NCBI GenBank assembly: GCA_044892525.1
Contig: CM097887.1
Span: 107,176,397-107,240,396 of the forward strand
Reading direction: 5' to 3'
DNA length: 64,000 nucleotides
Source of the DNA: Schmidtea polychroa
Lineage: Eukaryota
Below the pieces are notes generated by a model. That model was not told the origin of the DNA and searched no databases. It saw only the letters and a program-made list of their open reading frames with translations. The position numbers were made by a program, and so were the translations under genes. How positions within the stretch are numbered: position 1 is the stretch's first letter; the number at the start of each line of letters is the position of its first letter. This document shows positions 40,301-64,000 of this stretch, piece by piece.

Positions 40301-41882
40301 TAGATTAAAATTGGCGGAACTATGTAGAGATTATGGTTCATGTCCGAAATTGGAAAGCATTTGGATCCATGCGATCAATAGGCCATTCACTGTGTTTATG
40401 GCGGGATTAGAGTTACCTGTTGAATTAGAAAAACAGTGTACTCTGGAGATATACCACGCTGATGGACGAGAACGGAATATTATGATCCAGGCAGCAGCAG
40501 TTGATACCATAATCGCAGTAGAAATCTTGGATTTCAGGAAGCCATACTCTATAGTTAGCAAAAACGAGCCAACTTGGATTTACAATGTAAATAAAGTTGA
40601 TATACAGCAGTGTAAATCATTTGTGAGGAAGAAGTTAACCAAAGCCGAGGAGGACGAGGCTACAATTTTCATATCGGCAGGTTTTGCCAAATCCCGAATC
40701 GAACTGAAGGAGACAATTATCCAAATCGCAATTATGGATATGAGGGGAAATAATTTATTGAGTGCGGTAGTGACTCCCAGAGACCCTGTAAAACACTACC
40801 AAACGCACCAATACAAGTTAAAGGAACCTGATATTAGAGGAAACCTCGACGAAGATGATTGTTATCCTCTGATAAGATCTGCGATAAGAAAATACTTGTA
40901 GGTATTTTGCTTAAAGATCTGATCTCGGTAGCCAATCTACCAGTGCAGCGGATACTGAGTATTCGTGACCTTTCTGCAAATAAACTATTGGAAACCAGAG
41001 GAGTCCCAATGATTCATGGTCATTACAGATTGGGATTCCCGACGAAAACTTTCCTGCGTACGGTTCCCGGAGAACCAAGGAATTTAGTGGTCACCAATGA
41101 GGCACTGGCGATACGTGCGGTTTATTTACATCTCAGAAACGAATGGTTAGACCATATCACGAAACCCCAGGAGGAATTCATTTCCGTAACTACAGCAGCG
41201 ATAGTTGAGCAGGAAATGACGCAAAAGAGGAGATTACCCGAGCAACCATCTACATCAGGGCAACCCAAGCCTAAGAGAAAATCACCTGTGGACTTACCAC
41301 CGCCTCCAGCTATATCTATTGGAGAAGAAGATGAATATGAAACATGCGTTAGCGAAACGGAGACAGCAAAATCACCCAAACAATCATCGGGAGCTGCCTA
41401 TCAGCCAAAGGATAAATCGGAAAATGCGGTCAGAAAAGAAAATCCAGAAGGAGGCAAGGTGAAAAAGATGTTAAAGAAAATATTACCCATAAAAAGACAA
41501 TTTTTTCAAATTTGTCAGACTTCCCGCCAACGGAAATTCTTCAACGATGTCTTATTTTAAAGCTCATTGCAATACCTTTCGAATGTGGTATAGAAATCCA
41601 TATTATCAATATTATTGGTAAAGATATTATTATTTTTTCAAAATATTATTTTTTCAAGGTCATATTACTATTTTTTCAAAATATTATTTTTTCAAGGTCA
41701 TTCATATTTTCAAGGTCATTCATATTTTCAAGGTCCATCATATTTTTAAGGTCATATTTTAAAATTTAAATTTTTAGAGTTCCCACCAGTGGAATTTATT
41801 TGCCGATGGCTAATTTTGAAGCCCACTGCAATACCTTTCGAATGACGTATAGATATTCATATTATCATTATTATTAATAAAG

Positions 41883-43250
41883 TGTTGGACTAGAACTGAT
41901 TTCTAGACCCAAACTTCTAATTATGACTGAAACGTGTAGGTACACAACATGCACAAAGCAAAAAGTATAGCCAAATATTTAAAACTACACCAATTAAACA
42001 AAAATAATTAAGGGAGAAAACAACAAAAAATGAAAACAGAAAGTAAATAAAATTATACAAAAGCAAGAAGTTTTGTAAAATCAAACTCAAAAATATCCAT
42101 ATAAACATAGAATTACAAAAACAAACTCGAATAACTTAAAAGACGACAAAAACAGTAAAAAATTCCAGAAAAACTCAGAACATTCCATTAAAAATGGCGA
42201 TGACCATCACAAAAGCCAGCTAGAACAATAAAAGTTAGAGAAAATAAATAAATTAGTATTAAAAATAATAAATCTTAAAAAGAAATTCATAAAACATCAG
42301 TTAAAATAAAAATAAAATAGAATTAAAATGGAATGTTCTGGAACCGTTCCAAATCCATCATGGACGGCAAATTAACGAAAAATAATTAAAAAATAAAAAT
42401 ATAAAAATAAAAACAAAAATTATGGCACAAAAATCGCCATCAAAAATAGCAAAATCGTAAAATAGAAAATTCTGGAATAAAAAGAATTCGAGTTTGTTTT
42501 AATGCATCAATACATACACGTGTACTAAATAGGTATATATACTGACACGTTTCAGTCAGAACTTCACTTTTTATGCCAATATTTTATTGTTGAAAATCTT
42601 ACGGAAATTTATAGTGAGTAATTTTTCATTATTATATGTTTTATGAAATCATTTTAATGTTAATATATGTTTCATGTAATCATTTCAATATAATCTACCT
42701 TTAATTAACATATTTAAAGACCTATGATCTTTCTCATTATTTTGTTTTACGACTGATCAGCGACGTCTTAGTGCGTCCCTATTCAGTCCTGCATTCGATA
42801 GTGATGCAGCCTTCTAAAANNNNNNNNNNNNNNNNNNNNNNNNNNNNNNNNNNNNNNNNNNNNNNNNNNNNNNNNNNNNNNNNNNNNNNNNNNNNNNNNN
42901 NNNNNNNNNNNNNNNNNNNNNNNNNNNNNNNNNNNNNNNNNNNNNNNNNNNNNNNNNNNNNNNNNNNNNNNTCGGCCACTTCATGGTTCTACCATGGAGT
43001 TGTGTCGATAAAACCCCTCTGCTATGGCTCCATATACTTTATTTATAGGTCGACAGTGATGTTTCGACTCAACACAACAGTAGGGCTTGTCGTAGCGGTC
43101 ACAGTGGGGCCGTGTAAGCAAGCATTCTTCCCGAGTTCGAATGCATTACATATTTAAACTCAACATTAAAAATCTCGCACAATAGGTTTACACTAAGGTC
43201 ATAATCGAGTAGCATCTCAGACCCAAATTGAACACATATAGTCGGTTGAA
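41883..43250 (+). repeat. Left long terminal inverted repeat (TGTTGG family), with a 5' stem-loop and an internal 14-bp inverted motif TGACTGAAACGTGT (41924-41937 / 42545-42558)
   Basis: It aligns by eye to the reverse complement of ~52270-53630 on both sides of the gap. Shared examples are TGTTGGRCTAGAACTGAYTTCTAGACCCAAAC, TTCAGTCCTGCAT, ACTTCATGGTYCTRCCATGGAGTT, GGTCACAGTGGSGCC and ATTCTTCCCGA. Confidence 0.85.
42820..42971. other. Assembly gap (N run)
   Basis: Run of N characters. Confidence 1.
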
Positions 43251-43296
43251 CGTCATTAAAAAACTCAGTTATACCGGTACGTTTGTCGGACCTCAT

Positions 43297-43324
43297 TGAT
43301 ATATATATATATATATATATATAA
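43297..43324. repeat. (TA)n microsatellite
   Basis: ATATATAT... run. Confidence 0.95.
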
Positions 43325-44321
43325 TTCTTAAGGTTGCTATAAAAGTTTTTCAAAAGTAAACGCAATAATCCACGTAAGGAAGTTTCGACAAGCGTACATA
43401 GTAAAATGAAAATGCTTAATTATTTTAAACGAAATTCATTACTTCTGAATAACTACAGTTCTGAAAATAACGTACATTACCCTGATATAAAATTGTTAAT
43501 ATGTATGATCTCTGAATTCCGAAGTACAATCAAGAATTCAAAGCTGTAATTGTAGATACGTATTGTCATTAAATTATAGAATATGTCTTAAAATTATTTT
43601 TATAATTGTGAACTATTAATGAATCATTAACTTAAAATTTTTCCCTTTTTGAAAAGTATTCTATAAATATTAAATTATTATCTTATTTTAAGATGTAATG
43701 TATAAGGGTATTATAATACTCAAGGACAAATATAATTTCATATTACCCTTAAATTCTCATCTATGAATATTAAATTATAAAATACACCTCGGTGCCACCC
43801 TTAAAATACAAGGTGTTATGGTGTAGTAGTATTGAATGATGACTTTATTAAAATATGGAATACATCCTCAGAAGTATAATGTACAAATGTACCATCGTTC
43901 GGAATTATAGGGGAATTATTATAATTTACATAAATGCCCGAATTAGAAATTATAAATTATAATGTATAGTTCATTTCGCATACGTAAATGTCTGAATTAG
44001 AAAGTTATATATTAAAAATACAGACTGTAAATTATAAGGTATAATACATTCAGCATACATAAATGCCTAAATTGGAAATTAAGTTTTATATTAAAAATAC
44101 AAATTATAAATTATAATTTTATACTACCTCAATGTATAACTTATTTATAATACCTAAATGCCTAAATTAGGAATTAACAATTTCATATCAGGGATATAAA
44201 ATGTAAACTATAACTAATTATATGAAATGTTGGGTTATAAAATATAAAGCGTAAATGATTAAAAATAAATTATATATCTTGATCTTAGAAATATAGGCTA
44301 TATATGATTACAATATTATAT

Positions 44322-45460
44322 AACTATAAAGTATAAATAGTTATATCTGAATCACATAAGTATAATATTCTTAAAATTGCAAACTATAAATAATTATGGA
44401 AAAAATTTTAATTATCAGAATATAAATTATAATTAATTATATATAACTATAAAGTATAACTAATTATATCTGAATCATATAAGTATATTATTCTTAAAAT
44501 TGCAAACTATAAATAATTATGGATAAAATTTTAATTATCAGAATATAAATCATAATTAATTATATATAACTATAAAGTATAAATAGTTATATCTGAATCA
44601 CATAAGTACAATATTCTTAAAATTGCAAACTATAAATAATTATGGAAAAAATTTTAATTATCAGAATATAAATTATAATTAATTATATATAACTATAAAG
44701 TATAACTAATTATATCTGAATCATATAAGTATATTATTCTTAAAATTGCAAACTATAAATAGTTATGGATAAAATTTTAATTATCAGAATATAAATTATA
44801 ATTAATTATATATAACTAGAAAGTATAGATAATTATATCTGAATCATATAAGTATATTATTCTTAAAATTGCAAACCATAAATAATTATTTTAATTATCA
44901 GAATATAAATTATAATTAATTATAAATAACTATAAAGTATAAATAATTATATCTGAATCAATATTATTCTTAAAATTGCAAACCATAAATAATTATACAC
45001 AAAATTTTAATTATCAGAACATAAATTATAATTAATTATATATAATGTTGAGCATAAAATATAAAGTATAAATAGTTATCTATGAATCCTGTAAGTATAT
45101 TATTCTTAAGATGGCAAATTATAAATACTCACGGAAAAATTTTTAATTATCAAAATATAAATTATAATTAATTATATATAAATGTGGAGCGTAAAATATA
45201 AAGTGTGATTCGTTAGATATGAAGCCTATAGGTATGTTATTCTTAAAAAGGTAAACTATAAATAATTATGGATACAATTTTAGTTACAAGAATATAATTT
45301 ATCAATAATTATATTTTGATTATAAAGTAGAGAGTATAAATGAGTATATAGATCATGTAGGTGTCTTGTTCTTAAAAGTATAAACTATAAATGGTGCAAA
45401 ATATAAATCATAATTAATTATATACAACATTCGAAGTATTAAGTATAAATAATTATATAT
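44322..45460 (+). repeat. 123-bp AT-rich minisatellite with a 246-bp dimeric higher-order structure, decaying at both ends
   Basis: AACTATAAAGTATA starts at 44322, 44445, 44568, 44691, 44814 (variant AACTAGAAAGTATA) and 44928. Copies 1/3 and 2/4 share diagnostic alleles. Diverged relatives extend back to ~43900. Confidence 0.92.
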
Positions 45461-46698
45461 TTCAAAAAAAAGAGATAATTATAGATAAAGGTTAGCTACA
45501 AAAATGAATGGTTCACCTGAGTGCCGATCTTAAAAACTTCAATTATAGGTAGTTGGGTGGTAAACAATTATATATAAATTACGAGCGGTCGTAGGTTATC
45601 GAAGTATTAATGGTAAATAACCCTACAAAACTATAAAGTATAGTAATGCAAATCATAAACCCGGAAAATGGCAGGTACCTCATAAAATGTCGTCGAATTT
45701 TATTCTACCCCTAAAATATGTATTATAAAATAAAAATGTAAATTATAAGTGTGAAGATTTTAATGTTTTAGATATTTATATCACTATTGAACGATCAAAA
45801 ATGATTATAGAAATTAAAGTCGGTCGTTAAATTAATTCGCAGACAACTCTATCAGAGGAAGTAGTATTTGACCTGCAAGGACCCAGTAGTGGCCTGTTTT
45901 TAAAGTTACTTGAGACTCTGATTCTCTGAAAACCTCAGTAGGAGTAGGAATCCCAAAACCAATGTCGTTCAGGCATAAATAAGAAAGTCACATTAAAGAG
46001 GTAACGACAAATGATAACCTAAGCTCCTTATAGAATTAACGGGGACGATACAACACATGAATGGATATAGTTTATAAATTAATAAATGACTTACCAAATG
46101 CCCATGAAGCAAATTACCATAAATACCGACAAGCATTAGAAGCAGGTTGGCGTCGGAAAATAAAAGATTTTTTTTCATAAGAGACAGGTTGGAATTATGG
46201 CCAATTTTTATTTCGAAATTAGATTAAAAGGGCATACAACTGAAATGCTGAAAAGGTTGTTATGAATATAATAGCAGCATACACCCCTTGAACGACTTCA
46301 CCGACGAAGGGTATTGGAACACAGTTCGACAATAAGACCGTTCGCCAGCGAAATCTTTCTCTAGGGCTAATTATAGTAAATAATATAAGCTGAATTAAAT
46401 AATTCAGCTTAAATACAAATGTAAATAAATGATGCCCATGATGTAAATAATTACATAATAAGGTTAGCTTAACAAAACAACTAAATGCATGTTTTAATTT
46501 TTCATTAAAAGTTAAACTAATAGATCTAAGCGATTTAGATAAGACGACCACGAGCAAAAAATAAATTTCAGAGTCAAAGAAAATTTTTGTCTCTGGTTGA
46601 ATTAGTAATAAAGTATTTATAAGGAAGATCCCTTTCGATGTTTCTAGGTTGAGGCTATAAGGTGATGATAAGTAATGATTACCCCATTTTTTGGCTAT

Positions 46699-47091
46699 AA
46701 ATTTGGGCGACGGTCAGGAATCCGGATTATTTTAATTAATTTAAAATCAATATTTAATTAATAATAAAATAACAACCATTTAAATATTTTAATTCGAAAC
46801 CAAATTCAAAAAAATATCGAAAATATTTCCATCCGCCAAATTTTCCCTCGAAAGCCACATTCTAAAGGCTATGTAATTCATCTAATTCGACTAATACCCT
46901 TACGACCAGTACCCTTACGACCAGTACCCTTACGACCTGTACCCTTAGGGGGTCAAAACATCCTGTCGGATAAACTCAGAGTATATATAATAAAACTGAT
47001 CAACAATAAGAATTTTTTAGTTTAAATATTGATTAAATATTGATTTTAAATTAATTAAAATAATCCGGATTCCTGACCGTCGCCTAAATTT
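46699..47091. mobile_element. MITE-like element with 60-bp terminal inverted repeats and an internal 15-bp tandem repeat
   Basis: 46699-46758 versus 47032-47091 are inverted with 1 mismatch (AAATTTRGGCGACGGTCAGGAATCCGGATTATTTTAATTAATTTAAAATCAATATTTAAT). (TACCCTTACGACCAG) occurs 3.5 times at 46895-46947. The TSD is ambiguous (the palindrome AAATTT lies on both sides). Confidence 0.7.
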
Positions 47092-47235
47092 GTCATCTAA
47101 CTTACGACAAGGCACACTATCATCATCAGAGGGTAACTATTCGCTCGAACCACTGTTTTACGTCTTAGTAGACTGATAAGAAAGATGAAATTTTAAAAGG
47201 AAAATTACCATTAACCATTTTCATTTAACCACAGA

Positions 47236-47598
47236 ATGTCGCAAGCAAGTGATCCCGACGAAGCCGAATATAGGCAAATGATAACGCGGCTCCGGACCCG
47301 GTACATCTGGTATCGGATACACGACTGGAACCGGGGGTTGGACCTCGATAATTATGGTCCGGTCATTCGAAGCGGCCCAGAGCCCGATGCCCCGGCGTTG
47401 GTGAAAACCGAACCCTTCAACAACGTGTTAAGAGAAGCCCGCGATCGAGCGGCCATCGAGGTAGAAGTGGCCCAGATGCGGCTGAGGAGACTCGAACTCC
47501 AGCTCAAAGCCGAAATGATGGGAGTAACTCCTGAAGAGCTGGAGGAGACAGATGCTCCTCCAAGAAAGCGAGGGAGACCCCGTAAGAACCCTGCTTAA
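47236..47598 (+). CDS. 120-aa GC-rich protein with coiled coil, SUMO-consensus VKTE and C-terminal AT-hook (PRKRGRPRK)
   Basis: Real ATG preceded by an acceptor-like TTTAACCACAG. It aligns without gaps to 49764-50126 (74/120 identical by my count), with many synonymous changes. Confidence 0.8.
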   Translation: MSQASDPDEAEYRQMITRLRTRYIWYRIHDWNRGLDLDNYGPVIRSGPEPDAPALVKTEPFNNVLREARDRAAIEVEVAQMRLRRLELQLKAEMMGVTPEELEETDAPPRKRGRPRKNPA

Positions 47599-47917
47599 TC
47601 CGCCGGCCGTGGCAACTGGGACAAGACTATTTAACTAATTTGATCCAGTGATGTGTTTGCGTTGGACCTTTTTAGCCGCTAATATAACAAATGATAATCT
47701 TTTTTTATTAAATTGTTGACAATATATTTCATTATGTATCTTCGTAGTATAATAAATTATTTGCCTGCTATTACATTTTGGACTTTACGGCTTGTGGGGT
47801 GGATTCATGATGAAGGTGACCCTCCCCATCCTTTATCTATTAATTTTATGAAATTAGTCGAGTCGCCTTTATGCATACGGAAACGAGCGACGAAATTTTT
47901 ATTATCGTTTTCCTTCA

Positions 47918-48346
47918 GTGTACAAGCTACTTGAAAACCTACGCAAGGACCGCGAACAGGCCCAACACCAATCCGAGGATCTTCGAAGTCGAGTTGAGAA
48001 GCTCAAAATCAAGTGCCGAGAACTCGAAGGCACTTGGTTCAGTCCGGCTGAGATGAAGAAACGGACAACGCACATCTCACGGCTCCAGATCCAGGCGGAG
48101 CAAGACCAGCTCGAAATCCAAGCGTTGAAGCTACAAGTACGCTCGCTCGAGAGCAAACTGAATGAAAGATTCATCCAGGACGCCCTCTAAGAGTAGATTC
48201 GCCCACTTCCGGTGGAGCTGGCCCAGATGTACCCACCAGCCTAGGCAAGCAAGCCGAAACGTAAACGTAAACCCGAGACAAATTGAAAAGGGTCTGGCTG
48301 GCCGAGCAGGAGAAATTGAAAGAGGCTGAATCCAATCCACGGCCCT
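47918..48346 (+). pseudogene. Coiled-coil protein exon, left copy; C-terminus disrupted by nonsense codons and a frameshift
   Basis: 47918-48190 is heptad-rich and ~65% identical to 49086-49556. Homology continues past TAA/TAG (IRPLPVELAQMYPPA*ASKPKRKR, then shifted RDKLKRVWLAEQEK). Acceptor TTTTCCTTCAG|TG at 47918. Confidence 0.7.
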
Positions 48347-48487
48347 GAGAGATGTTCGAGAGTGCGACCATCCTGAGCAAACAAACCTTGTAATATAATA
48401 GTGATTAAATAAATTATTCTTGTTGTCTAATGAGTATGTGATTGAACTTTGCCGTTGTCTAAAACAAGGTGATTGGTAGAAAGGCGT

Positions 48488-48922
48488 TTGGGAAAACAAT
48501 CTCGATGAGGGACCGAAACAAATCGGACACGTGCCTTCTATCGGCGTCCGTGAACCCATAGAGTGCTCGACAATTACAGTGCTTGACGCGCTCACTTTTT
48601 GCGAGTACTCAACCCCTTGGTACATTACCAACGTTGATTGCTCAACGGGTACCAAGAGGAAAACAATGTTGTGGTGGGTTACTGATGATCCGATATTTTG
48701 TTCTTTAGTGCTGTTGCTAGCGTAACCCAAGAATACAACGTTAGTGTTTCCGCTTGGTACCCGTTGAGTAATCAACGTTGGTCCTGTACCAAGGGTTGAG
48801 TACTCGCGAAAAGTGAGCGCATCGAGGCACTATAATCGTCGAGCACTCTATGGGTTCACGGACTACCGTTAGAAGGTTTGTGTCCGATTTCCTTAGGTCC
48901 CTTATCAAAATTGTTTTCCCAA
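48488..48922. other. ~435-bp imperfect palindrome: two ~190-bp structured arms around a central hairpin
   Basis: 48488-48682 is the reverse complement of 48722-48922 (roughly 85% by eye). Each arm contains three internal stem-loops. The axis stem is GGGTTAC (48676-82) / GTAACCC (48722-28). Confidence 0.92.
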
Positions 48923-49085
48923 CCTTACGTACAAACTCTCACTTTTCAGGTAATCATAAAATATATCAGTCATTTTTTAACACTACAAAACATGTATTAT
49001 TTTAACAACAAGCAAAGGAAATATCATTTTAATACTACTAGATATATAAAACACCCTACAGAAATACACATCAAGGAATGGAAGT

Positions 49086-49556
49086 TCAACTTGGCCAGTT
49101 GGTGGGGCCGGTTAGTCTCGTCGTAGATATTTGCGAGGAGCCCACTTGCTTTTCGTACTCGGCCAGTCTGGCCCTCTTTAATTTCTCACGAATGTTTCTC
49201 CCCAGCCGCTTCCTCTTGGGCTTATCTTTCGCGGCCGGAGGGTAAATGGCTGCCAACTCCACGGACAATGGCTGGATTTGACTTATGATGGCTCCGTGAA
49301 CCGCTTGTTCATTACGTTCGGTTTCCAACGCGCGGAGTTGGAGCTTCAAGGCCCGGATCTCCATCTGATCCTGCGCGTTTTGAGTCTGCAATTGGAGGAC
49401 CTGTGTCAACTTCTTCTTCATATCCTGGGGACTAAACCAGGTGCTTTCTAGTTCACGGCACCGTCCCTTGAGTTTGTCCACTCGTATACGGAGCTCCTCG
49501 GCCTGTTTTTGGGCTTCTTCTCTGTCCTTTCGTAGATTTTCACATAGTTTGATCAC
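49086..49556 (-). CDS. Coiled-coil protein exon with basic NLS-like tail (KDKPKRKRL), right copy, open
   Basis: 156-codon open frame with a heptad pattern. There is no ATG at the start; instead a splice acceptor TTTATCTAG|TG lies at the same position and phase as in the left copy. Confidence 0.7.
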   Translation of the reverse strand: MIKLCENLRKDREEAQKQAEELRIRVDKLKGRCRELESTWFSPQDMKKKLTQVLQLQTQNAQDQMEIRALKLQLRALETERNEQAVHGAIISQIQPLSVELAAIYPPAAKDKPKRKRLGRNIREKLKRARLAEYEKQVGSSQISTTRLTGPTNWPS

Positions 49557-49763
49557 TAGATAAATTACAATGGTTATCTGCTTGCAGCATTCCCCTCATT
49601 CAATATAATAAGATCAATATCATGCATAACGATACTTTAGCTATTAAATAAGAAATTTATTCAGAAGATAATTTATTAAAAGGAGTAACATATGATCCTC
49701 AACCCATTTTTGATTATTCGTCACAATATACACAATTATAATAAGTCAGGAGTCGGTCCTTGA

Positions 49764-50126
49764 TCACCCTCGGCATTTGCGGGGCCTCCCTCTTTTTCGT
49801 GGGGATGCTTCGGCCTCCTCTAGCTCTTCCACGGGCACTCTTTCTTTTTTCGCCCGGATTTGCAACTCGATCTTCCTGAGTCGCATCTGAGCGGCTTCCA
49901 CCTCCCAGGCCACTTGGTCTCGGGCCTCCTCCAACCGGTTATTCTCCGGTTCCACCTTCACCCACGCCGGGGCATCCACTTCGGGGCCTGTCCGGATTAC
50001 TCGTTCCGCACAATCCAGGTCCCTTCCCTGACCCCACCGATGTATATGTTGCCAGATATACCGGGTCCGGAGACGGGTGATCGTCTGTTGGTCCTCCTCT
50101 GCACTGTGGTTGCTTGATTGTGACAT
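49764..50126 (-). CDS. 120-aa AT-hook/coiled-coil protein, right paralog
   Basis: MSQSSNHS...VKVEP...SPRKRGRPRKCRG. ATG at 50126 is preceded by acceptor-like TGCATTGCAG. Same length as 47236-47598. Confidence 0.8.
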   Translation of the reverse strand: MSQSSNHSAEEDQQTITRLRTRYIWQHIHRWGQGRDLDCAERVIRTGPEVDAPAWVKVEPENNRLEEARDQVAWEVEAAQMRLRKIELQIRAKKERVPVEELEEAEASPRKRGRPRKCRG

Positions 50127-51297
50127 ATCTGCAATGCAAATGTTACGATCTATTCCCAATCAAGGACATACAAATTGAAGTTAGGATAAAATATCTCAGT
50201 TAATTAATAAGTTGCTGAAGTAAGCTAAGTACTTTTAACACGAGGATTGAATTTAATTTAGCGATAAATTTTGATCATTTAAATTAAGAAGACAACAAAA
50301 AAAAATAAAAAAAAATTAATAATTAATAATTTGAGTAAAGTAATGGACTTCTGATTTCATTATTACCTTTTCGTCTTATTAAAATTATTTAGCGTCATTC
50401 AAATTTTCGTTGTTTTATGATAGTCATCATAATTAACGTTAAATAATAAATTTCGATTAAATATATAATTCTAGCTAATTTTGACATACTAATGTAAGTA
50501 AATGTTAAATATTCATATCCTAAACATTGTAATACTATTTCAGCAATAACAGCAGTCGGCCGCACTCCCACAACAATCGCCATTGACCAACATGGATTTA
50601 CAAATTAAAATATGGTATGCTCAGTTAAGCTTGTGGATATTAAATCAACTATATTTCCGACATACCCACTGATCTCACTGGTGTCACTTCAACCGAAACT
50701 CGCGTTAAAGATAGAAAAAGCCGATCTCATCCGAGCAACAAACGAAAAATGTCCATCTCCGATCCCAAAGCTGCCAGGCAAAGAAATAAAGCCTATTTGT
50801 AGTTGGAGTTTCTCTCTTTGAATTTTGTTCGGAATGTCGTGATTAAATAAACTATTAATATTTTTTTTAGTCGCAAAGACAATGATGTAAATAAATTTGG
50901 TGATTAATAAATGTAGGGTACTATTGGGTTTCATCTTTTGATCTGACTTGAATACAAGTTTGTCCATAATTTTTACAACTTGTTCTACTTTTATTACTTT
51001 AACGGGGTTGTGGAAATTATTCCACCTAGGGTCTTGAGGGGAAAGATTATAGTATTTGTTGTCTCTCAGATCTATATATATAAACACACATACACATATA
51101 TACATATCCACCCACACATATACATATAGGGATATAATTGAAGTTAATAAAATTCGATCGTTTTCAGGGGGGTGTTACTAAAAATAGATTTTAGTGATTT
51201 TCCGCAATTTTATTGGAAGGTAGGGCCATTGACGCTAAATTTAGAGCTAGGGGAATCCTAAAATCAATAATTTGTTTATAATTTTATTTTACGAAAT

Positions 51298-51670
51298 AAT
51301 TATTTAAAATTCATTACTAATAATATTGGTAATAATAATACGATAATGTTACGAACGACAATATTAATATTAATAATGGCAATAATCATAATGATAATAA
51401 TGATAATAATGATAATAATATTAATAATGACAGCCAANNNNNNNNNNNNNNNNNNNNNNNNNNNNNNNNNNNNNNNNNNNNNNNNNNNNNNNNNNNNNNN
51501 NNNNNNNNNNNNNNNNNNNNNNNNNNNNNNNNNNNNNNNNNNNNNNNNNNNNNNNNNNNNNNNNNNNNNNNNNNNNNNNNNNNNNNNNNNNNNNNNNNNN
51601 NNNNNNNNNNNNATCATAAGAATATAATATTGATAATATGAGCAGTACTACTATGATACTGATAATGATT
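51298..51670. repeat. (ATA/ATG)n microsatellite flanking an assembly gap (N 51438-51612)
   Basis: ATAATAATGATAATAATG runs on both sides of the N stretch. Confidence 0.9.
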
Positions 51671-52269
51671 AACTGTAAATGTTCATAATTTTATTCTTAT
51701 ACCTGTTTGACGACTATACAAGTATTTACCGTCAATATTTAGAAGCATGTCCTATATAGATAATTATAATTTATCAATTTGAAAATTTATATGTTTATAA
51801 TTCATGATTTTCCATCTTCCAATTTATAATTTGTAATTTACAAATTTATATTTTCTGATTTCTAGTTTTTCATTTCATAATTTTATATTTTATGATTTAG
51901 AATTCTATATTTTGTAATTTGTAATTTTCCTTTTTACTATTTATAATTTTATATTTTACACATTTATATTTCATAATTTCCAATGTTATTATTCATAATT
52001 TACAATTCTATGATCTACAATTTCTAATTTTGTATTTGATAATTCGAGTTCGTAATTTGCGCTATTAGGTTTGTAATATCTACATTTACCTTATAATTAA
52101 TTTAAAAACCTATTTAGATTGAGTTCTACTTAGACGTAGGCCGAATATCTTTATCGTTTCTATTACTTCGATTACCATAAGATTACAAAACCTAATTCGG
52201 CATGTGTCTAAGCATAACTAAAGTTGTTATTATTGATCAAACAGCTACATTACTGTGATTGCAGAATTG

Positions 52270-53630
52270 TGTAAGTTTAGGTATGAGCTCTACTCAGATT
52301 AATGCCTTAGTGTAGAGATGTTGTCTATGATTTTAAATGTTAAAATTAATTGTGTATTAAGCAATGGTCGGGAAGAATATTGCTTCCATGGCGCCACTGT
52401 GACCACTTCCACAAACCTTAGTGTTGTGTGCTGAGTCAACCATTTACGGTTGACCTTAGATAAATACAAAGAGTCAGACGGAGGGTTTCCTCGACCTAAC
52501 TCCATGGCAGGACCATGAAGTAGTTCGACCCCCGAAAGACCCGAACAAAAAAAGGGACGATATAATATCAGATTGCTATAATATTGATAATGCATGTGCG
52601 ATAAAAATTAGATGCAGGACTGAACGACGACGCAGGAATACCAGTACGCCGTCGAACCTTCGTACATCACTGGAGAAAATCAAAAGCAAGAAACATCAAA
52701 AAATGCAATTACTTCGATTTCCCCTACATAAATAATAACAAATTGAAAAAGTGATTCATCAATGCAATAAAAATCAACAAATAAAATAATAATAAATTGA
52801 AAAAGTAATTCATTAATGTAATAAAAAATCAACAAATAAATTAATAACAGATTGAAAAAGTAATTCATTAGTGTAATAAAAAAAATCAACAATTCTTACT
52901 ATTTTCGTTGGCAATATTTTCTTCAAAAATTGGCATAAAATAGTGATTGATTGTGACTGAAACGTGTCAGTATATATACCTATTTTGTACACGTGTATGT
53001 ATTGATGCATTAAAACAAACTCGAATTCTTTTTATTCCAGAACTTTCTATTTTGTAATTTCGATATTTTAAATGGCAATTTTTGTGCCATAATTTTTGTT
53101 TTTATTTTTAAATTTTTATTCTTTAATTATTTTTCATTAATTTTACGTCCATGATGGATTTGGAACGGTTCCAGAACATTCTATTTCACTTTTAATTTAA
53201 TTTTTATTTTAATTGGTGTTTTATGGACTTTTTTTTACGAATTTTCATTTTTATTACTAATTTATTGATTTTGTCTAAATTTTATTGTTTAAGATAGCTT
53301 TTATGATGGTCATCGCCATTTTTATGGAATGTTCTGGGTTTTTCTGGAATTTTTTACTGTTTTTACCATCTTTTAAGTTATTCGAGTTTGTTTCTTGTAA
53401 CTCTATGTTTATTTGATCATTTTTGAGTTAGATTTTGTATAACTTCTTGCTATTGGTATGATTTTATTTAATTTCGGTGTTTATGCTTTTGTTGTTTTCT
53501 CCTTGAATTAATATTGTTTATTTGATGTAATTTTAATATTTAACTACACTTTTTGCTTTTTGCATGTTGTGTACCTACACCTTTCAGTCACAATTCCAGT
53601 TTGGGTCTAGAAGTCAGTTCTAGCCCAACA
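52270..53630 (-). repeat. Right long terminal inverted repeat (TGTTGG family)
   Basis: Reverse-complement homology to 41883-43250. It ends ...GTTCTAGCCCAACA at 53630. Confidence 0.85.
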
Positions 53631-53680
53631 GTTGTATGCTGGGTTACGCTGGTAACAGCACTTAAACATTCAACCACCAG
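53631..53680 (+). other. Terminal hairpin module (GGGTTAC...GTAACCC-A-CCA), homologous to the central axis 48668-48739
   Basis: GTTGTATGCTGGGTTACGCTGGTAACAGCACTTAAACATTCAACCACCAGTAACCCACCA versus the reverse complement of the axis, GTTGTATTCTTGGGTTACGCTAGCAACAGCACTAAAGAACAAAATATCGGATCATCAGTAACCCACCA. Confidence 0.85.
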
Positions 53681-53815
53681 TAACCCACCAAAAGATATTA
53701 TTTTTTCAAAATATTATTTTTCAAGGTCGTTTATTTTTTCAAGGTTCAAAATCTGTTCAAAGCTACTGTTTTAGTCAATACGAACCAGATGAAATAATCG
53801 GTTCCATCGCCAAAA

Positions 53816-54066
53816 GTGATGCTCATCCTATTTGAATATATGCCTGAAAGATTGAAAGATTCAAGTTGAAAGACCTGAAATTAGAAGACAATCACAAGAA
53901 AATATTATCCGGACAATTGATGTCCGGACTGCAATACTTGCATAATTTGAATATCGCCCACTGCAATATCAATCCAAAAGACATTTTCGATGATATGGCA
54001 GAATTAAGATTAAAGATTTCAAACTTTGGAGGACGAATAATAAAATTGCGCTTATCGTCATATTAG
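53816..54066 (+). pseudogene. Degenerate kinase fragment, orphan copy
   Basis: Same sequence and frameshift as the array copies. Confidence 0.8.
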
Positions 54067-54092
54067 AAAATTACCAGCGAGTCGAGAGATTA

Positions 54093-54557
54093 GTGCTCAA
54101 CCATGCTTATCTAAGTAGAAGATGGACAATCAAACCAGATACCGTGACAAAGGCGAACATTTCGTATTTGGAATTTACGGAGAGAACCGGTTGGTATACA
54201 ATATATCAAGAAATAGTAAATCTAATACCTCCCACAAAAGGAGAACTAACTGGCAAAGGAAAGGCTAGATTAGTGAGTATTCCTGGTTGTAAAGGAATAA
54301 ACGCTTTGGATTGGTTTAGTGTCAGAAAGGTAGCGAGTGTAAACCAGCCCCGCATAAATAAATTAATTAATAATTGTAGTTGTCAAAATACGTTAAAGGG
54401 GACAACGAGAGATAAAACCTCAACTTGGTTATTCTTAATCATGATAGGGGGAGTAATTTGCATGATTTTAATTTTGATATTAACCACCCTATGGATGCTT
54501 AGATTAAATATGCGGGATATTCGTTATTGGGAAATTATTTACGAAACCGAGGTATAG
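54093..54557 (+). CDS. 154-aa transmembrane ORF, orphan copy
   Basis: Homologous to the array 155-aa ORF, with a 3-bp deletion and several substitutions. Confidence 0.55.
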   Translation: MLNHAYLSRRWTIKPDTVTKANISYLEFTERTGWYTIYQEIVNLIPPTKGELTGKGKARLVSIPGCKGINALDWFSVRKVASVNQPRINKLINNCSCQNTLKGTTRDKTSTWLFLIMIGGVICMILILILTTLWMLRLNMRDIRYWEIIYETEV

Positions 54558-54612
54558 GGGGAAAGTCTCACCATATACTAGGAAGTGTAAATATATATTT
54601 TATCTATTTTAT

Positions 54613-56328
54613 ATGTTATTTATATTAGTATGTAAACTAATGTGGGCTCAAATGAGCATCGGTAAAATCAGACATCAGCGTATGTCGACTTTGGTTACCC
54701 TGCGAGGGTCTATCACGAAAGTGATAAAAGCTGTTAATTATTTTATTTTTAGAAAAATGAATTATAACAGAGAACCAAAACCACCAGTCAAAGCAAATCG
54801 ACGACACCCATTGGCAACGTACAATTCCCAGACTCGAGTTGAAACTGAAGTATATAGTACATACAAAGAAGAGTACGTATACAGGTTCATCGGAACTACG
54901 GTCGCAGCAAAAATGAATCACCTCACCTCAAACTATTGGTATTATCCCAGGAGAGTGGATATTCCAAACGATTTCAAATTCCCAGGAGGGCCTCGAAGGC
55001 AAATGATGATAACGGTTATAAATAACCAAGGTAGATTAAAATTGGCGGAACTATGTAGAGATTATGGTTCATGTCCGAAATTGGAAAACATTTGGATCCA
55101 TGCGATCAATAGGCCATTCACTGTGTTTATGGTGGGATTAGAGTTACCTGTTGAATTAGAAAAACAGTGTACTCTGGAGATATACCACGCTGATGGACGA
55201 GAACGGAATATTATGATCCAGGCAGCAGCAGTTGATACCATAATCGCAGTAGAAATCTTGGATTTCAGGAAGCCATACTCTATAGTTAGCAAAAACGAGC
55301 CAACTTGGATTTACAATGTAAATAAAGTTGATATACAGCAGTGTAAATCATTTGTGAGGAAGAAGTTAACCAAAGCCGAGGAGGACGAGGCTACAATTTT
55401 CATATCGGCAGGTTTTGCCAAATCCCGAATCGAACTGAAGGAGACAATTATCCAAATCGCAATTATGGATATGAGGGGAAATAATTTATTGAGTGCGGTA
55501 GTGACTCCCAGAGACCCTGTAAAACACTACCAAACGCACCAATACACGTTAAAGGAACCTGATATTAGAGGAAACCTCGACGAAGATGATTGTTATCATC
55601 TGATAAGAAAGATCTGCGATAAGAAAATACTTGTAGGTATTTTGCTTAAAGATCTGATCTCGGTAGCCAATCTACCAGTGCAGCGGATACTGGGTATTCG
55701 TGACCTTTCTGCAAATAAACTATTGGAAACCAGAGGAGTCCCAAAGATTCATAGTCATTACAGATTGGGATTCCCGACGAAAACTTTCCTGCGTACGGTT
55801 CCCGGAGAACCAAGGAATTTAGTGGTCACCAATGAGGCACTGGCGATACGTGCGGTTTATTTACATATCAGAAACGAATGGTTAGACCATATCACCATAC
55901 CCCAGGAGGAATTCATTTCCGTAACTACAGCAGCGATAGTTGAGCAGGAAATGACGCAAAAGAGGAGATTACCCGAGCAACCATCTACATCAGGGCAACC
56001 CAAGCCTAAGAGAAAATCACCTGTGGACTTACCACCGCCTCCAGCTATATCTATTGGAGAAGAAGATGAATATGAAACATGCGTTAGCGAAACGGAGACA
56101 GCAAAATCACCCAAACAATCATCGGGAGCTGCCTATCAGCCAAAGGATAAATCGGAAAATGCGGTCAGAAAAGAAAATCCAGAAGGAGGCAAGGTGAAAA
56201 AGATGTTAAAGAAAATATTACCCATAAAAAGACAATTTTTTCAAATTTGTCAGACTTCCCGCCAACGGAAATTCTTCAACGATGGCTTATATAACGCTAT
56301 TAACATTTTGAATGCTAAGTACTGTTAG
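54613..56328 (+). CDS. 571-aa protein: unknown N-terminal domain, degenerate DEDDh 3'-5' exonuclease fold (~55396-55885), and a basic/Pro-rich tail with a bipartite NLS-like motif
   Basis: IFISAGF...IIQIAIMDMRGNNLLSAVVTPRDPVKHYQTHQY.LKEPDI...ICDKKILVGILLKDL...IRDLS...VTNEALAIRAVY parallels REX4/ISG20 (VALDCE...ARVSIVN..G.VLYD.YVKP...VTDYRT..SGI...LKGRILVGH...NDL...IRDTS...SVEDARAAM.LY). The Exo I acids are lost. Tail: KRRLPEQPSTSGQPKPKRK. The true start codon is uncertain. Confidence 0.7.
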   Translation: MLFILVCKLMWAQMSIGKIRHQRMSTLVTLRGSITKVIKAVNYFIFRKMNYNREPKPPVKANRRHPLATYNSQTRVETEVYSTYKEEYVYRFIGTTVAAKMNHLTSNYWYYPRRVDIPNDFKFPGGPRRQMMITVINNQGRLKLAELCRDYGSCPKLENIWIHAINRPFTVFMVGLELPVELEKQCTLEIYHADGRERNIMIQAAAVDTIIAVEILDFRKPYSIVSKNEPTWIYNVNKVDIQQCKSFVRKKLTKAEEDEATIFISAGFAKSRIELKETIIQIAIMDMRGNNLLSAVVTPRDPVKHYQTHQYTLKEPDIRGNLDEDDCYHLIRKICDKKILVGILLKDLISVANLPVQRILGIRDLSANKLLETRGVPKIHSHYRLGFPTKTFLRTVPGEPRNLVVTNEALAIRAVYLHIRNEWLDHITIPQEEFISVTTAAIVEQEMTQKRRLPEQPSTSGQPKPKRKSPVDLPPPPAISIGEEDEYETCVSETETAKSPKQSSGAAYQPKDKSENAVRKENPEGGKVKKMLKKILPIKRQFFQICQTSRQRKFFNDGLYNAINILNAKYC

Positions 56329-60880: not shown

Positions 60881-63800
60881 TCCCCCTCCATTTAAAACTT
60901 GTGAGCCATTCTACATTTCGAATTATTTCTTTGCATTGCTTATTCTTTAGAACATAGCTTCTGTCATGTCGTTTTCCAGTTATTTCATAAGGCCCTTCAT
61001 AAGTTATGAATCATAACGTTCATCCATCTTTTTAGTATTTTCTTTTTTAACCAATACTTGGTCTCCAACTTCAAAATTCCTATAATTTTGTGTAATTAAA
61101 TTCTTTTCCATGTTTTGTTTATGTTTAATTCCCTCCACGATCTTCCTTCTCCGATTATTAGCATCATTATTTTGTATATCCAAATTCTCTTTTCCCATCC
61201 ATTGTCTACAAATATTCCGCCCAAATATTATTTCAGAGGGCGAAAATCCGGTTGTCTGCTGTATCGTCGCATTTAACATAAATTCCACATCTGGCAAAAT
61301 TTCTGCCCAATCTTTATGCCGTTTGTCTTTTAACGTAATTGCAATTGCATCCCTCATAGTTCTAAATTGCCTCTCAACTAAACCGTTTGTACTATGATGA
61401 TATGGGCTTGAATATATTATTGTAATATGATGCGTTTTCAACACTTCTAAAAGGACTTGAGATTCAAATGTTTTTCCTCTATCGGAGTGAATGATTTTAG
61501 GGGCACCAAATTTCAAAATCCAATTTTCTCTTAAAATCTTTGCCGTCGTCTTTTCATCCTGATGAGCAACTGCCGTCAATGATATATACCTACTGAATTG
61601 ATCAATTATAGCTAAAATATATTGTTTTCCATGAATTGTTTTCTTAAATGGTCCGCAGAAATCAATAAATATCTCTTTGAAAACTTCATCTGTACTCTGT
61701 TTAATCAACGGTTCTTTTGTTCGTCTAGTCCACGTCTTCCGTTTCTGACACTGTTCACAATTTTCAATCACTCTTCTAACTTCATTTTCACTAATTTTCA
61801 TTTTCATATTTTCCCGTGCATATTCGTAAATTTTTTTTACCCCTGCGTGACATAAGTCTTTATGTATATTAAAAATTATACCTTCATTATTTAATTTTAT
61901 TTCTTGGTCCATATTTTCTATGACCAATATTTTAGTTTTATTTTTATCTACCTTGGCGTTTTCATGAACTGTTTGGCACTGACTACATGAAGTACAGTCT
62001 TTTCTTGATAGGGCATCTGCGTTAGCATGCAATTATCCTTTTCTGTATTCTAATTTGATATCTAGCCCACTTAAATAGTTAATCCATGTTTGGAATTGTG
62101 CTGTAATTGGCTTTTTTGTATTTATCATAAAGGTTATAGCTTTATGATCGGTTCTTAAAGTAAATCTTTTTCCATATAGATAGTGTTTGAAATGCTGAGT
62201 AAAATGATAGATTGCAAGCAATTCCTTTCGCGTAATGCAGTAACCGATTTCGTGCTTATTCATTGTCTTTGATCCATATGCAATAACTTGTTCTTGTCCA
62301 TTACTACTCAACTGAGAAAGCACTCCCCCCAATCGTATCGAAACTAGCATCTGTATCTAAAATAAAGGTTTTTCGTAAATCCGGAAATCCTAGTACTGGG
62401 GTAGACGTTAACGCTTTCTTTAGAGTGTTGAAGTTTGTTTCACATTCTTCAGTTTATATAAGTTTATCTTTGTTAGACTCACATAACCTTTCTAATGGTC
62501 TTGCATACTTGGCGTAATCTTTAACAAATTTTCGATAATAATTTGTTAAGCCTAGAAAGCTTCTTAAACGTTTAATACATTTTGGTTTTTCATATTCTTG
62601 CATTGCTTTTATCTTTTCATAATCTGTCTTAATACCATTTTTATTTATAATGTGTCCCAAAAATTTTATTTCTAGTTTGTTAAAACAACATTTTTCTAAG
62701 CTTATTTTCAAACCAGCTTCTTGAATCTTTCGAAAAACTCTTTCTAGTCTTTTTTATGTTCGATTTCACTGTCTGCAAATATCAGGATATCGTCTAAATA
62801 GACAATTGCTTCTCTCCAATTAAGATCACCCAAAACTTGAGTCATTAATTTTTGAAAAGTTGCTGGGGCAGCTGCAATTCCAAAAGGCATTCTGTTAAAA
62901 CAATATTGACCATCTTTTGTTGAAAATGCAGTCTTTATTTTTGATTCCTCTTCTAATTCCACTTGATAATAAGCATTACCAAGATCGATAGTGCTAAATA
63001 TCTGTGCTCCATTTAGGATATCCATCATCTCTTCAATATTTGGTATTGGAAATCGAGGTCTCTCCGTAATTGCATTTAGTGCCCGAAAATCCAAACATAT
63101 TCTAATATCTGATTTATTCTTTTTTAACACACATACCAATGGGCTATTCCACACCGAGTCACATTTTTTTATAATTCCTGCTTCTTCCATGTCTTTTAGC
63201 ATGTCTTGTATTTTGTGAGCAATATGAATCGGCTGACGTCTAGGATTAATTGTCACTGGGCTACCTCTAGTAACTATCTTATGTTTAATTAACTGTGTTT
63301 TTCCTATATCCCATTTATTTTTCATGAATATATCCGAAAATTCTTTAAGTAATTTATTAATCGTTGGGTCGATAATTCCTTTCAAATTGTTTTCCTCTAA
63401 ATTCATTAATTGATTTTTTAATTTTACTTTAGTTACTGCCTGTAATTTAATATCAAAACAATTCATCATTTCTACGCCTGCAATTACGCTCGGGTTAATC
63501 TTATTTGCCACAAAGAATCTTATTACCAATTCTAATCCCGAAATTCTCACTTTTAGTAATATTGTTCCTATGATTTTAAGTGTGCTCTCGTTTGCACATG
63601 TAACCATAATATTGGATTCCCCTATTTTATCACGCATCTTTAATTTACTAACAATATCTTCGCTAATCACGTTTATTCTAGCCCCGGTATCCAAAAGACA
63701 ATCAACTTTTATTTTATTTTCCAGCCAAATACCTACACTAGGTCTGCCATTCATTCTTTCGTAAACGAATTTAGGTGCAAAAGATCTTTCTTTATTTTCA

Positions 63801-64000
63801 TTAACTTTATTATTAATTATATCGATATTCATAATCTTATCAATTTTGTTATTAATTTCATATAAACTATATTCAAAATAATTTTCAAAGTCAAAACATT
63901 CACAATCATTCATAATTACATCATTAATTTTTAAATCATCTTTAAATTCATTCATTACGGAAATCTTGAAATCACAAGCATTCAAATTCAAACATTCTGT
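60876..64000 (-). pseudogene. pol: Ty3/Gypsy pol (protease-RT-RNase H-integrase), disrupted; the element continues beyond the window
   Basis: Motifs in Gypsy order: PR LLDTGA, RT ICLDFRALN / YCFNRMPFG / YLDD, RNase H DTDAS...ELLAI...TDHKAI, IN HKDLCH..CEQC, IDFCGP, HSDRG, GLVER and GPY. Lesions: frameshifts near 62745 and 62325, stops at 62454 and 62033, and a 14-bp insertion near 61005. Confidence 0.96.
60881..60893 (-). promoter_or_regulatory. Polypurine tract (AAATGGAGGGGGA)
   Basis: Purine run abutting the LTR's TG. Confidence 0.85.

Follow-up and report, generated by a model that had tools for sequence, protein, structure and literature searches.

The 435-bp palindrome at 48488–48922 of the window (the whole stretch of 64,000 nucleotides of Schmidtea polychroa DNA that was analyzed) is very probably the junction of two related solo long terminal repeats (LTRs) of a giant, Burro-like Ty3/Gypsy element, and the hairpins in its arms represent a conserved module that likely folds in RNA just upstream of a tRNA-Pro primer-binding site (PBS). 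The palindrome itself is not a functional unit.

Nested solo LTRs at the palindrome

The inverted repeat is genuine. Its arms (48488–48662 and 48747–48922) match at 154 of 174 aligned columns, or 88.5%, close to the 85% estimated by eye in the initial annotation, and the best of 300 shuffles reached only 104 matches. The three stem-loops ascribed to each arm were all found in the sequence of both arms, and the positions of the open reading frames confirm that both ORF pairs transcribe toward the palindrome. The central 75 bp, overlooked so far, are the terminal module of the right LTR; the counterpart belonging to the left LTR lies at 53635–53690.

A tandem array with a repeat length of 2,866 bp is interrupted, within one of its units, by the 11.8 kb around the palindrome (41883–53690), which carry AAAG on either side, at 41879–41882 (+) and at 53691–53694 (+), where the array unit resumes. 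Fourteen undisturbed array units read straight through this site, with an empty-site joint of 41878 to 53691. The right half (48672–53630) is in turn flanked by GTTG on both sides (48668–48671 and 53631–53634, both given on the + strand), and its empty-site joint connects 48667 to 53631. Both joints are present in DNA contigs, where they skip 4,963 (4,959 + 4) and 11,812 bases, in each case the insert plus 4. Since the right half is bounded by GTTG, and since copies of the left arm elsewhere continue into 53635–53690, the locus consists of a 6.8-kb LTR that carries a sister LTR of 4,959 bp, in antisense, within its final 60 bp. Duplications of 4 bp were likewise seen in all 8 solo LTRs with both ends visible (among 10 stretches), and also in a full-length copy, E1.

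The outer solo LTR (subfamily B, + strand) extends from its TG start at 41883 to the insertion point at 48671 and is 91–97% identical to another solo LTR, L189, in the main blocks. Its displaced 3' end at 53635–53690 (+), comprising the terminal stem, a hairpin with a GUAA loop and the CA end, corresponds to the normal end of B copies. The inner solo LTR (subfamily A, 48672–53630, − strand) is 96–99% identical to the solo copies L192–L195, of which L192 has the same length, and 97–98% identical to the 3' LTR of E1. According to alignment and folding, its terminal module (48672–48746, −), which forms the spacer of the palindrome, has a stem GGGTTAC/GTAACCC around a small tetraloop hairpin, and a CA end. 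The three hairpins that follow, again from folding and alignment, are H3 (48753–48793), H2 (48798–48848) and H1 (48859–48886), all on the − strand. In the outer LTR the same hairpins, on the + strand, are H1 (48524–48550), H2 (48561–48610) and H3 (48616–48656), which correspond to hairpins (a), (b) and (c) of the initial annotation.

Each LTR bears two reading frames. ORF-A of subfamily B (47236–47598, +) encodes 120 amino acids with a basic C-terminal motif, RKRGRPR, which we take to be AT-hook-like, and has about 61% amino acid identity to ORF-A of subfamily A (49764–50127, −). ORF-B of subfamily B (47918–48190, +) is coiled-coil-like; its frame ends earlier than that of its counterpart in A (49086–49556, −), yet the similarity runs on. 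The differences between A and B are biased toward third codon positions in both pairs (27/31/61 over the three positions for ORF-A and 32/23/57 for ORF-B). Pfam had no match for ORF-A at E ≤ 0.1 and only sub-threshold coiled-coil matches for ORF-B, and the ESM Atlas returned no informative match for the LTR-borne ORFs. These ORFs (47236–48190, +; 49086–50127, −) each start just past a pyrimidine-rich AG that resembles a splice acceptor. To judge from the sequence, they could be accessory genes expressed from spliced RNA.

The initial annotation had described the arms as more conserved than the flanking genes. This is true as far as the ORFs are concerned (88.5% for the arms versus 63% and 66% at the DNA level for the two ORF pairs), but the first 700 bp of both LTRs are equally alike (88.8%). 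Between subfamilies, this 5' block is 88–91% identical, and thus as conserved as the 3' module. A further hairpin is present at the extreme 5' end of the LTR (41883–41915 and 53598–53630). LTR B also contains, at about 46700–47090, a MITE-like element of about 380 bp with inverted ends of about 65 bp, which is very abundant in DNA runs and absent from L189.

A giant element of Burro-type anatomy

The interior of the element was examined for A-type and near-A copies. The full-length copy E1, which has A-type LTRs, measures 32.2 kb in total, its 5' LTR being shortened, and 25.3 kb in its interior. It is marked as an LTR retrotransposon by direct LTRs that begin with TG and end with CA and by a short target-site duplication, and as Ty3/Gypsy by the order of pol domains, protease, reverse transcriptase, RNase H and integrase (PR-RT-RH-IN). 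Its eight scanned long frames contain, besides pol, a zinc knuckle, MATH, ankyrin and TRAF domains and a viral fusion glycoprotein domain, the last of which sits between Gag and PR.

Burro and GYPSM1 are described as giant gypsy-like LTR retrotransposons of planarians, with an interior of up to 25 kb and a total length above 30 kb (PMC6431247). Set beside this published description, the element fits a Ty3/Gypsy retrotransposon of more than 30 kb with Burro-type anatomy: it shares with the account in PMC6431247 the interior of about 25 kb, the total of more than 30 kb, the PR-RT-RH-IN order, the MATH/TRAF and ankyrin domains and the env-like fusion domain between gag and protease. In contrast, the BIR and BCL2 domains listed there as Burro features (PMC6431247) had no match at E ≤ 0.001 in E1, where the scan covered the 8 long frames of an interrupted copy. 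The portions of the Burro text on which we draw contain no account of LTR RNA structure, LTR-borne ORFs, the PBS or a plus-strand primer site (PMC6431247).

Interior lengths, as read from the coordinates of the PBS and 3' junctions, seem to fall into two classes of about 25.5 kb and about 10.5 kb. The class of about 10.5 kb suggests an abundant, shorter, non-autonomous derivative.

A covarying hairpin module next to the primer-binding site

In coding orientation, the last 230 nt or so of the LTR are taken up by the hairpins. A first alignment of 46 of 90 LTR ends was folded with RNAalifold, a check proposed in the initial annotation; it recovered H1–H3, and two-sided changes were seen at 4 of the 52 pairs. 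Rows were then added from 40 PBS-adjacent loci taken in list order and from 20 loci picked by hand for differing H1 variants. In total 137 ends, 104 of them distinct, were extracted, and 13 more H1 matches were excluded as being without a recognisable LTR end. Clustering at 93% gave 31 groups, and 30 representatives were aligned; L120, in which half of H3 is deleted, was left out.

In these 30 divergent LTR ends, 98.3% of the 1,497 cells of a 50-pair structure pair, as against 31–39% in controls with the structure slid along the alignment. Changes on both sides of a pair occur at 12 of the 50 pairs (6 of 17 pairs in H2, 4 of 14 in H3), and the observed values were attained in none of 500 shuffles. 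Of the 43 hairpin pairs, 11 occur with two Watson-Crick types, and the tree requires 18 changes or more, a count that recombination between subfamilies could inflate; the rows are related and probably recombine. Conservation of columns is 93% in stems, 82% in unpaired positions and 59% upstream. The covarying hairpin module is thus real. The earlier proposal of selection on secondary structure within each arm stands in this respect, since the stems are more conserved than unpaired and upstream columns and the substitutions are compensatory; non-compensatory changes with no excess conservation, named at the time as the outcome that would speak against it, were not what we found.

The individual hairpins add to this picture. 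The G-C to A-U swap reported for hairpin (a) was confirmed among the 30 LTR ends (GC in 15, AU in 14, GU in 1). A degenerate H1 pattern has 2,390 matches genome-wide, and the one H1 pair left free in it is Watson-Crick in 2,264, G.U in 90 and A.C in 36 of these copies, which are not independent events. The outer H1 stem is invariant by construction, because the rows were chosen with the H1 pattern. For the apex of hairpin (b), the AGTG/CACT pairing of the initial annotation is in the wrong register: it would be broken in the 6 of 30 rows that read AGTA, whereas an AGTGC/GCGCT-type pairing co-varies at 2 pairs (6 of 30 rows in each case). On the sense strand, the loop of a fourth, small hairpin is of the GNRA type in 29 of 30 rows, and the terminal stem around it is 97.6% paired; neither the terminal stem nor this tetraloop hairpin has two-sided changes in the 30 rows. 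A long-range pairing of GGGTT with an upstream AACCC, proposed by RNAalifold, was not favored, having no two-sided change and a probability of at most 0.04 in four single leaders. Folding of single arms gave z-scores of only −1.9 and −2.2.

The Rfam search suggested earlier returned nothing near threshold, either for 41800–53800 or for six divergent LTR ends (best E 0.68–1.1). A sequence look-up with the module had no match, and no description of it was found in the open-licence literature. Ginger-like and hammerhead readings, made by eye, were dropped given the LTR nature of the locus, and Rfam found no self-cleaving motif. The roughly 2,400 copies, spread over many subfamilies, amount to a natural covariation data set, and what it defines is a structured module of 230 nt on the primer side of a giant retroelement of planarian type.

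At 383 places, a short spacer and then the PBS come after the end of the LTR. The host tRNA-Pro(UGG) has a 3' end that, together with CCA, is complementary to this PBS. The spacer is 8 nt long in all 77 junctions read (for example, L038 and L070–L099). In most retroelements it measures about 2 nt, and the longer spacer raises the question of how cDNA ends are processed. Genes for tRNA-Pro(UGG), which the genome carries in large arrays, occur in a 475-bp tandem array (L100–L103), with 2,161 pattern matches genome-wide. The terminal stem was predicted in three of four leaders with a probability of 0.7–1.0, and with 0.34 in the fourth. Its predicted extension into the 8-nt spacer meets a C.A mismatch in 10 of 80 junctions.

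The initial annotation had suggested, among other readings, a structured 3' element with both ORF pairs transcribing toward it; rather than to a 3' element common to two convergent genes, the structure is better assigned to the LTR 3' terminus, beside the PBS. The best reading, by analogy, is a U5/leader RNA module that may work like retroviral leader structures, a conserved base-paired structure adjoining the PBS being the mark of such elements. In the genomic RNA, the module would fold on the sense strand within the 5' leader. There the terminal stem would keep the PBS exposed, and H1–H3 would serve Gag binding, dimerisation or packaging, as in retroviral and Ty1 leaders. The stems of the retroviral U5-IR and U5-leader provide a model for comparison (PMC3601003), and the Ty1 5' leader is described as compact and structured, in a 2016 review whose relevant part calls Ty3 RNA structure uncharacterised (PMC4974528). 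As far as these accounts go, the likeness lies in a compact structured RNA at the 3' end of the LTR next to the PBS and in a terminal stem predicted to pair just outside the LTR (PMC3601003, PMC4974528). Unlike these leaders, the module has a different set of hairpins and an 8-nt spacer, and, to judge from Rfam, it shares no common sequence family with them. The two copies in the window would be inert for replication, because they are without PBS and interior; both are orphaned, and the palindrome would contribute nothing to it.

No polypurine tract was found before the 3' LTR: in all 25 pattern-selected junctions (L164–L188), no 15-nt stretch in the 60 nt next to the LTR had more than 9 purines, and two unselected copies, E1 and E2, have the same flank. 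Such a tract is a usual feature of LTR retrotransposons, as a replication signal and not as a basis of classification, and its absence poses the question of how plus-strand DNA is primed in these elements. In its place there is a conserved 8-bp hairpin with a GC tract behind it, counted at 394 and at 392 places, numbers near that of the PBS junctions (383). We also noted that the GGGCCCCC tract before the 3' LTR bears a loose resemblance to a PBS in inverted form, and that its distance from the LTR is similar. Priming may conceivably be non-standard at both ends, with the GNRA-containing leader module setting tRNA-Pro 8 nt from the LTR and the plus strand starting, without a polypurine tract, from the conserved hairpin and the short inverted PBS-like tract present in about 390 copies; we offer this as a rather doubtful proposal. 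No paper on plus-strand priming of this kind was found in the open-licence literature.

Two other roles for the module were considered. Each arm singly could be a 3'-end element, located in R, of the transcripts of LTR-borne ORFs or of genomic RNA, acting in termination, stability or export. The module does lie directly after ORF-B in both LTRs, and 4 of 15 rows have no polyA hexamer within 250 nt upstream of H1. However, hexamers precede the module in 11 of the 15 rows (a weak sign in AT-rich DNA), the module borders on the PBS, and pairing of the terminal stem is predicted to reach into the spacer ahead of the PBS; we regard a 3'-end role as unlikely.

The hairpins might also be conserved as single-stranded DNA rather than RNA, with a function in minus-strand strong-stop DNA, strand transfer or the processing of ends by integrase. 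They are located where copying of the LTR begins, the covariation of Watson-Crick pairs is symmetric with regard to the strand, and A.C cells exist (14 in the alignment, 36 genome-wide). Nevertheless, on the sense strand G.U exceeds A.C both genome-wide (90 versus 36) and in the alignment (65 versus 14 cells; 17 versus 11 pairs), an asymmetry that is modest by pair count and to which a single pair contributes 27 of the 65 G.U cells, and the loop conserved in 29 of 30 rows is of the GNRA type, an RNA motif. A purely DNA-level role therefore appears quite improbable, and folding of the module in leader RNA is preferred.

Chance origin of the junction

A pattern requiring both arms, 70–100 bases apart, has one match genome-wide, which is this locus. 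With the palindrome as query, 40 of 3,622 candidates were scored: the 39 besides this locus cover the right part only and start at, or no more than 8 bases from, 48672, with unrelated flanks save for one constant flank in 6 of 28 loci. With the left arm as query, 40 of 2,553 candidates were scored, and all 29 other loci that were fetched run into the normal LTR end (the 56 bases at 53635–53690) and not into the right arm. The paired form was absent from the other 39 + 39 scored matches. By a rough expectation, about 0.4 antisense landings within 100 bp of another LTR end would occur, and further cases of an LTR within or beside another LTR were encountered among the fetched loci (L196, L198 and L197). 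With one paired locus against 2,390 H1 matches, about 0.4 landings expected and other nested pairs seen, the palindrome is accounted for as a product of chance. In L196 and L198, an A-type LTR is inserted into another LTR at the end of ORF-A, at sites about 15 bp apart; with two cases only, this could be chance or a preferred site.

LTR B would have integrated first, into an array unit, and LTR A then into LTR B, and each element would have been cut down to a solo LTR by recombination between its own LTRs. Nested LTR retrotransposon insertions are well known, with one element inside another, a short duplication for each, and each reduced to one LTR. The locus resembles them in all of these respects: an element within an element, separate short duplications, and a single LTR remaining for each. 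It differs in that the inserted LTR and the one receiving it belong to sister subfamilies, are oppositely oriented and meet at their 3' ends, an arrangement that mimics a foldback element. As genome clutter the palindrome is ordinary; for repeat annotation it serves as a warning, since tail-to-tail nested sister LTRs can pass for a foldback element.

The idea that the palindrome is an element in its own right is not supported, since one nested insertion with a 4-bp duplication to itself accounts for it and the arms occur paired at one locus. An inverted-repeat unit that moves or recurs as one element was rejected on similar grounds (one locus, a separate duplication for each half, and the empty-site joints). 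Gene conversion between the arms, invoked earlier to explain their similarity, is superfluous because each arm is 92–99% identical to dispersed copies of its own subfamily.

A long dsRNA hairpin at this single locus is possible in terms of modeled folding, which predicts 156 inter-arm pairs and −296.5 kcal/mol for the 435-nt palindrome. Having arisen by nesting, the palindrome might now yield such dsRNA, if transcription from one LTR read through the junction and the product folded back, and thereby contribute to silencing of the family by small RNAs; the two LTRs are both directed into the junction, and Burro elements are reported to be piRNA-controlled in planarians, according to the part of PMC8532177 that bears on them. 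But there is one locus only, it is young as judged by its 97–99% identity to other copies, and in both LTRs polyA-type hexamers situated 116–147 nt upstream of H1 could make transcripts stop short of the arms. We consider a contribution to silencing very unlikely. Poly-A loose ends at 42233 and 42272 were set aside as transcript evidence because the DNA is A-rich.

DIRS elements have an internal complementary region that matches an end. A foldback, DIRS-like or single-stranded DNA element whose terminal inverted repeats are long and whose central palindrome is functional and maintained by gene conversion can practically be dismissed, for even though the whole 11.8 kb resembles one inverted repeat with one outer duplication, and its center resembles the right end, the two halves are separate multi-copy LTRs, each flanked by a duplication of its own, and neither the 39 + 39 other scored matches nor the pattern scan, with its one locus, revealed the paired form elsewhere. 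The junction of two solo LTRs thus remains the preferred reading.

The remainder of the window is mostly occupied by the tandem array, with about 15 near-identical 2,866-bp units at 1–41560 and 53691–56328. The array has a frame of about 187 codons that closes with a hydrophobic stretch, and another of at most 571 amino acids, which is split in array units. The array protein had a weak match to PF16506 (E 0.07) as its only hit, no PDB match and no similarity to the giant element. At 61004–64000 (−), an unrelated and interrupted pol of the ordinary Gypsy type is present, with protease, RT, RNase H and integrase motifs recognized by eye.
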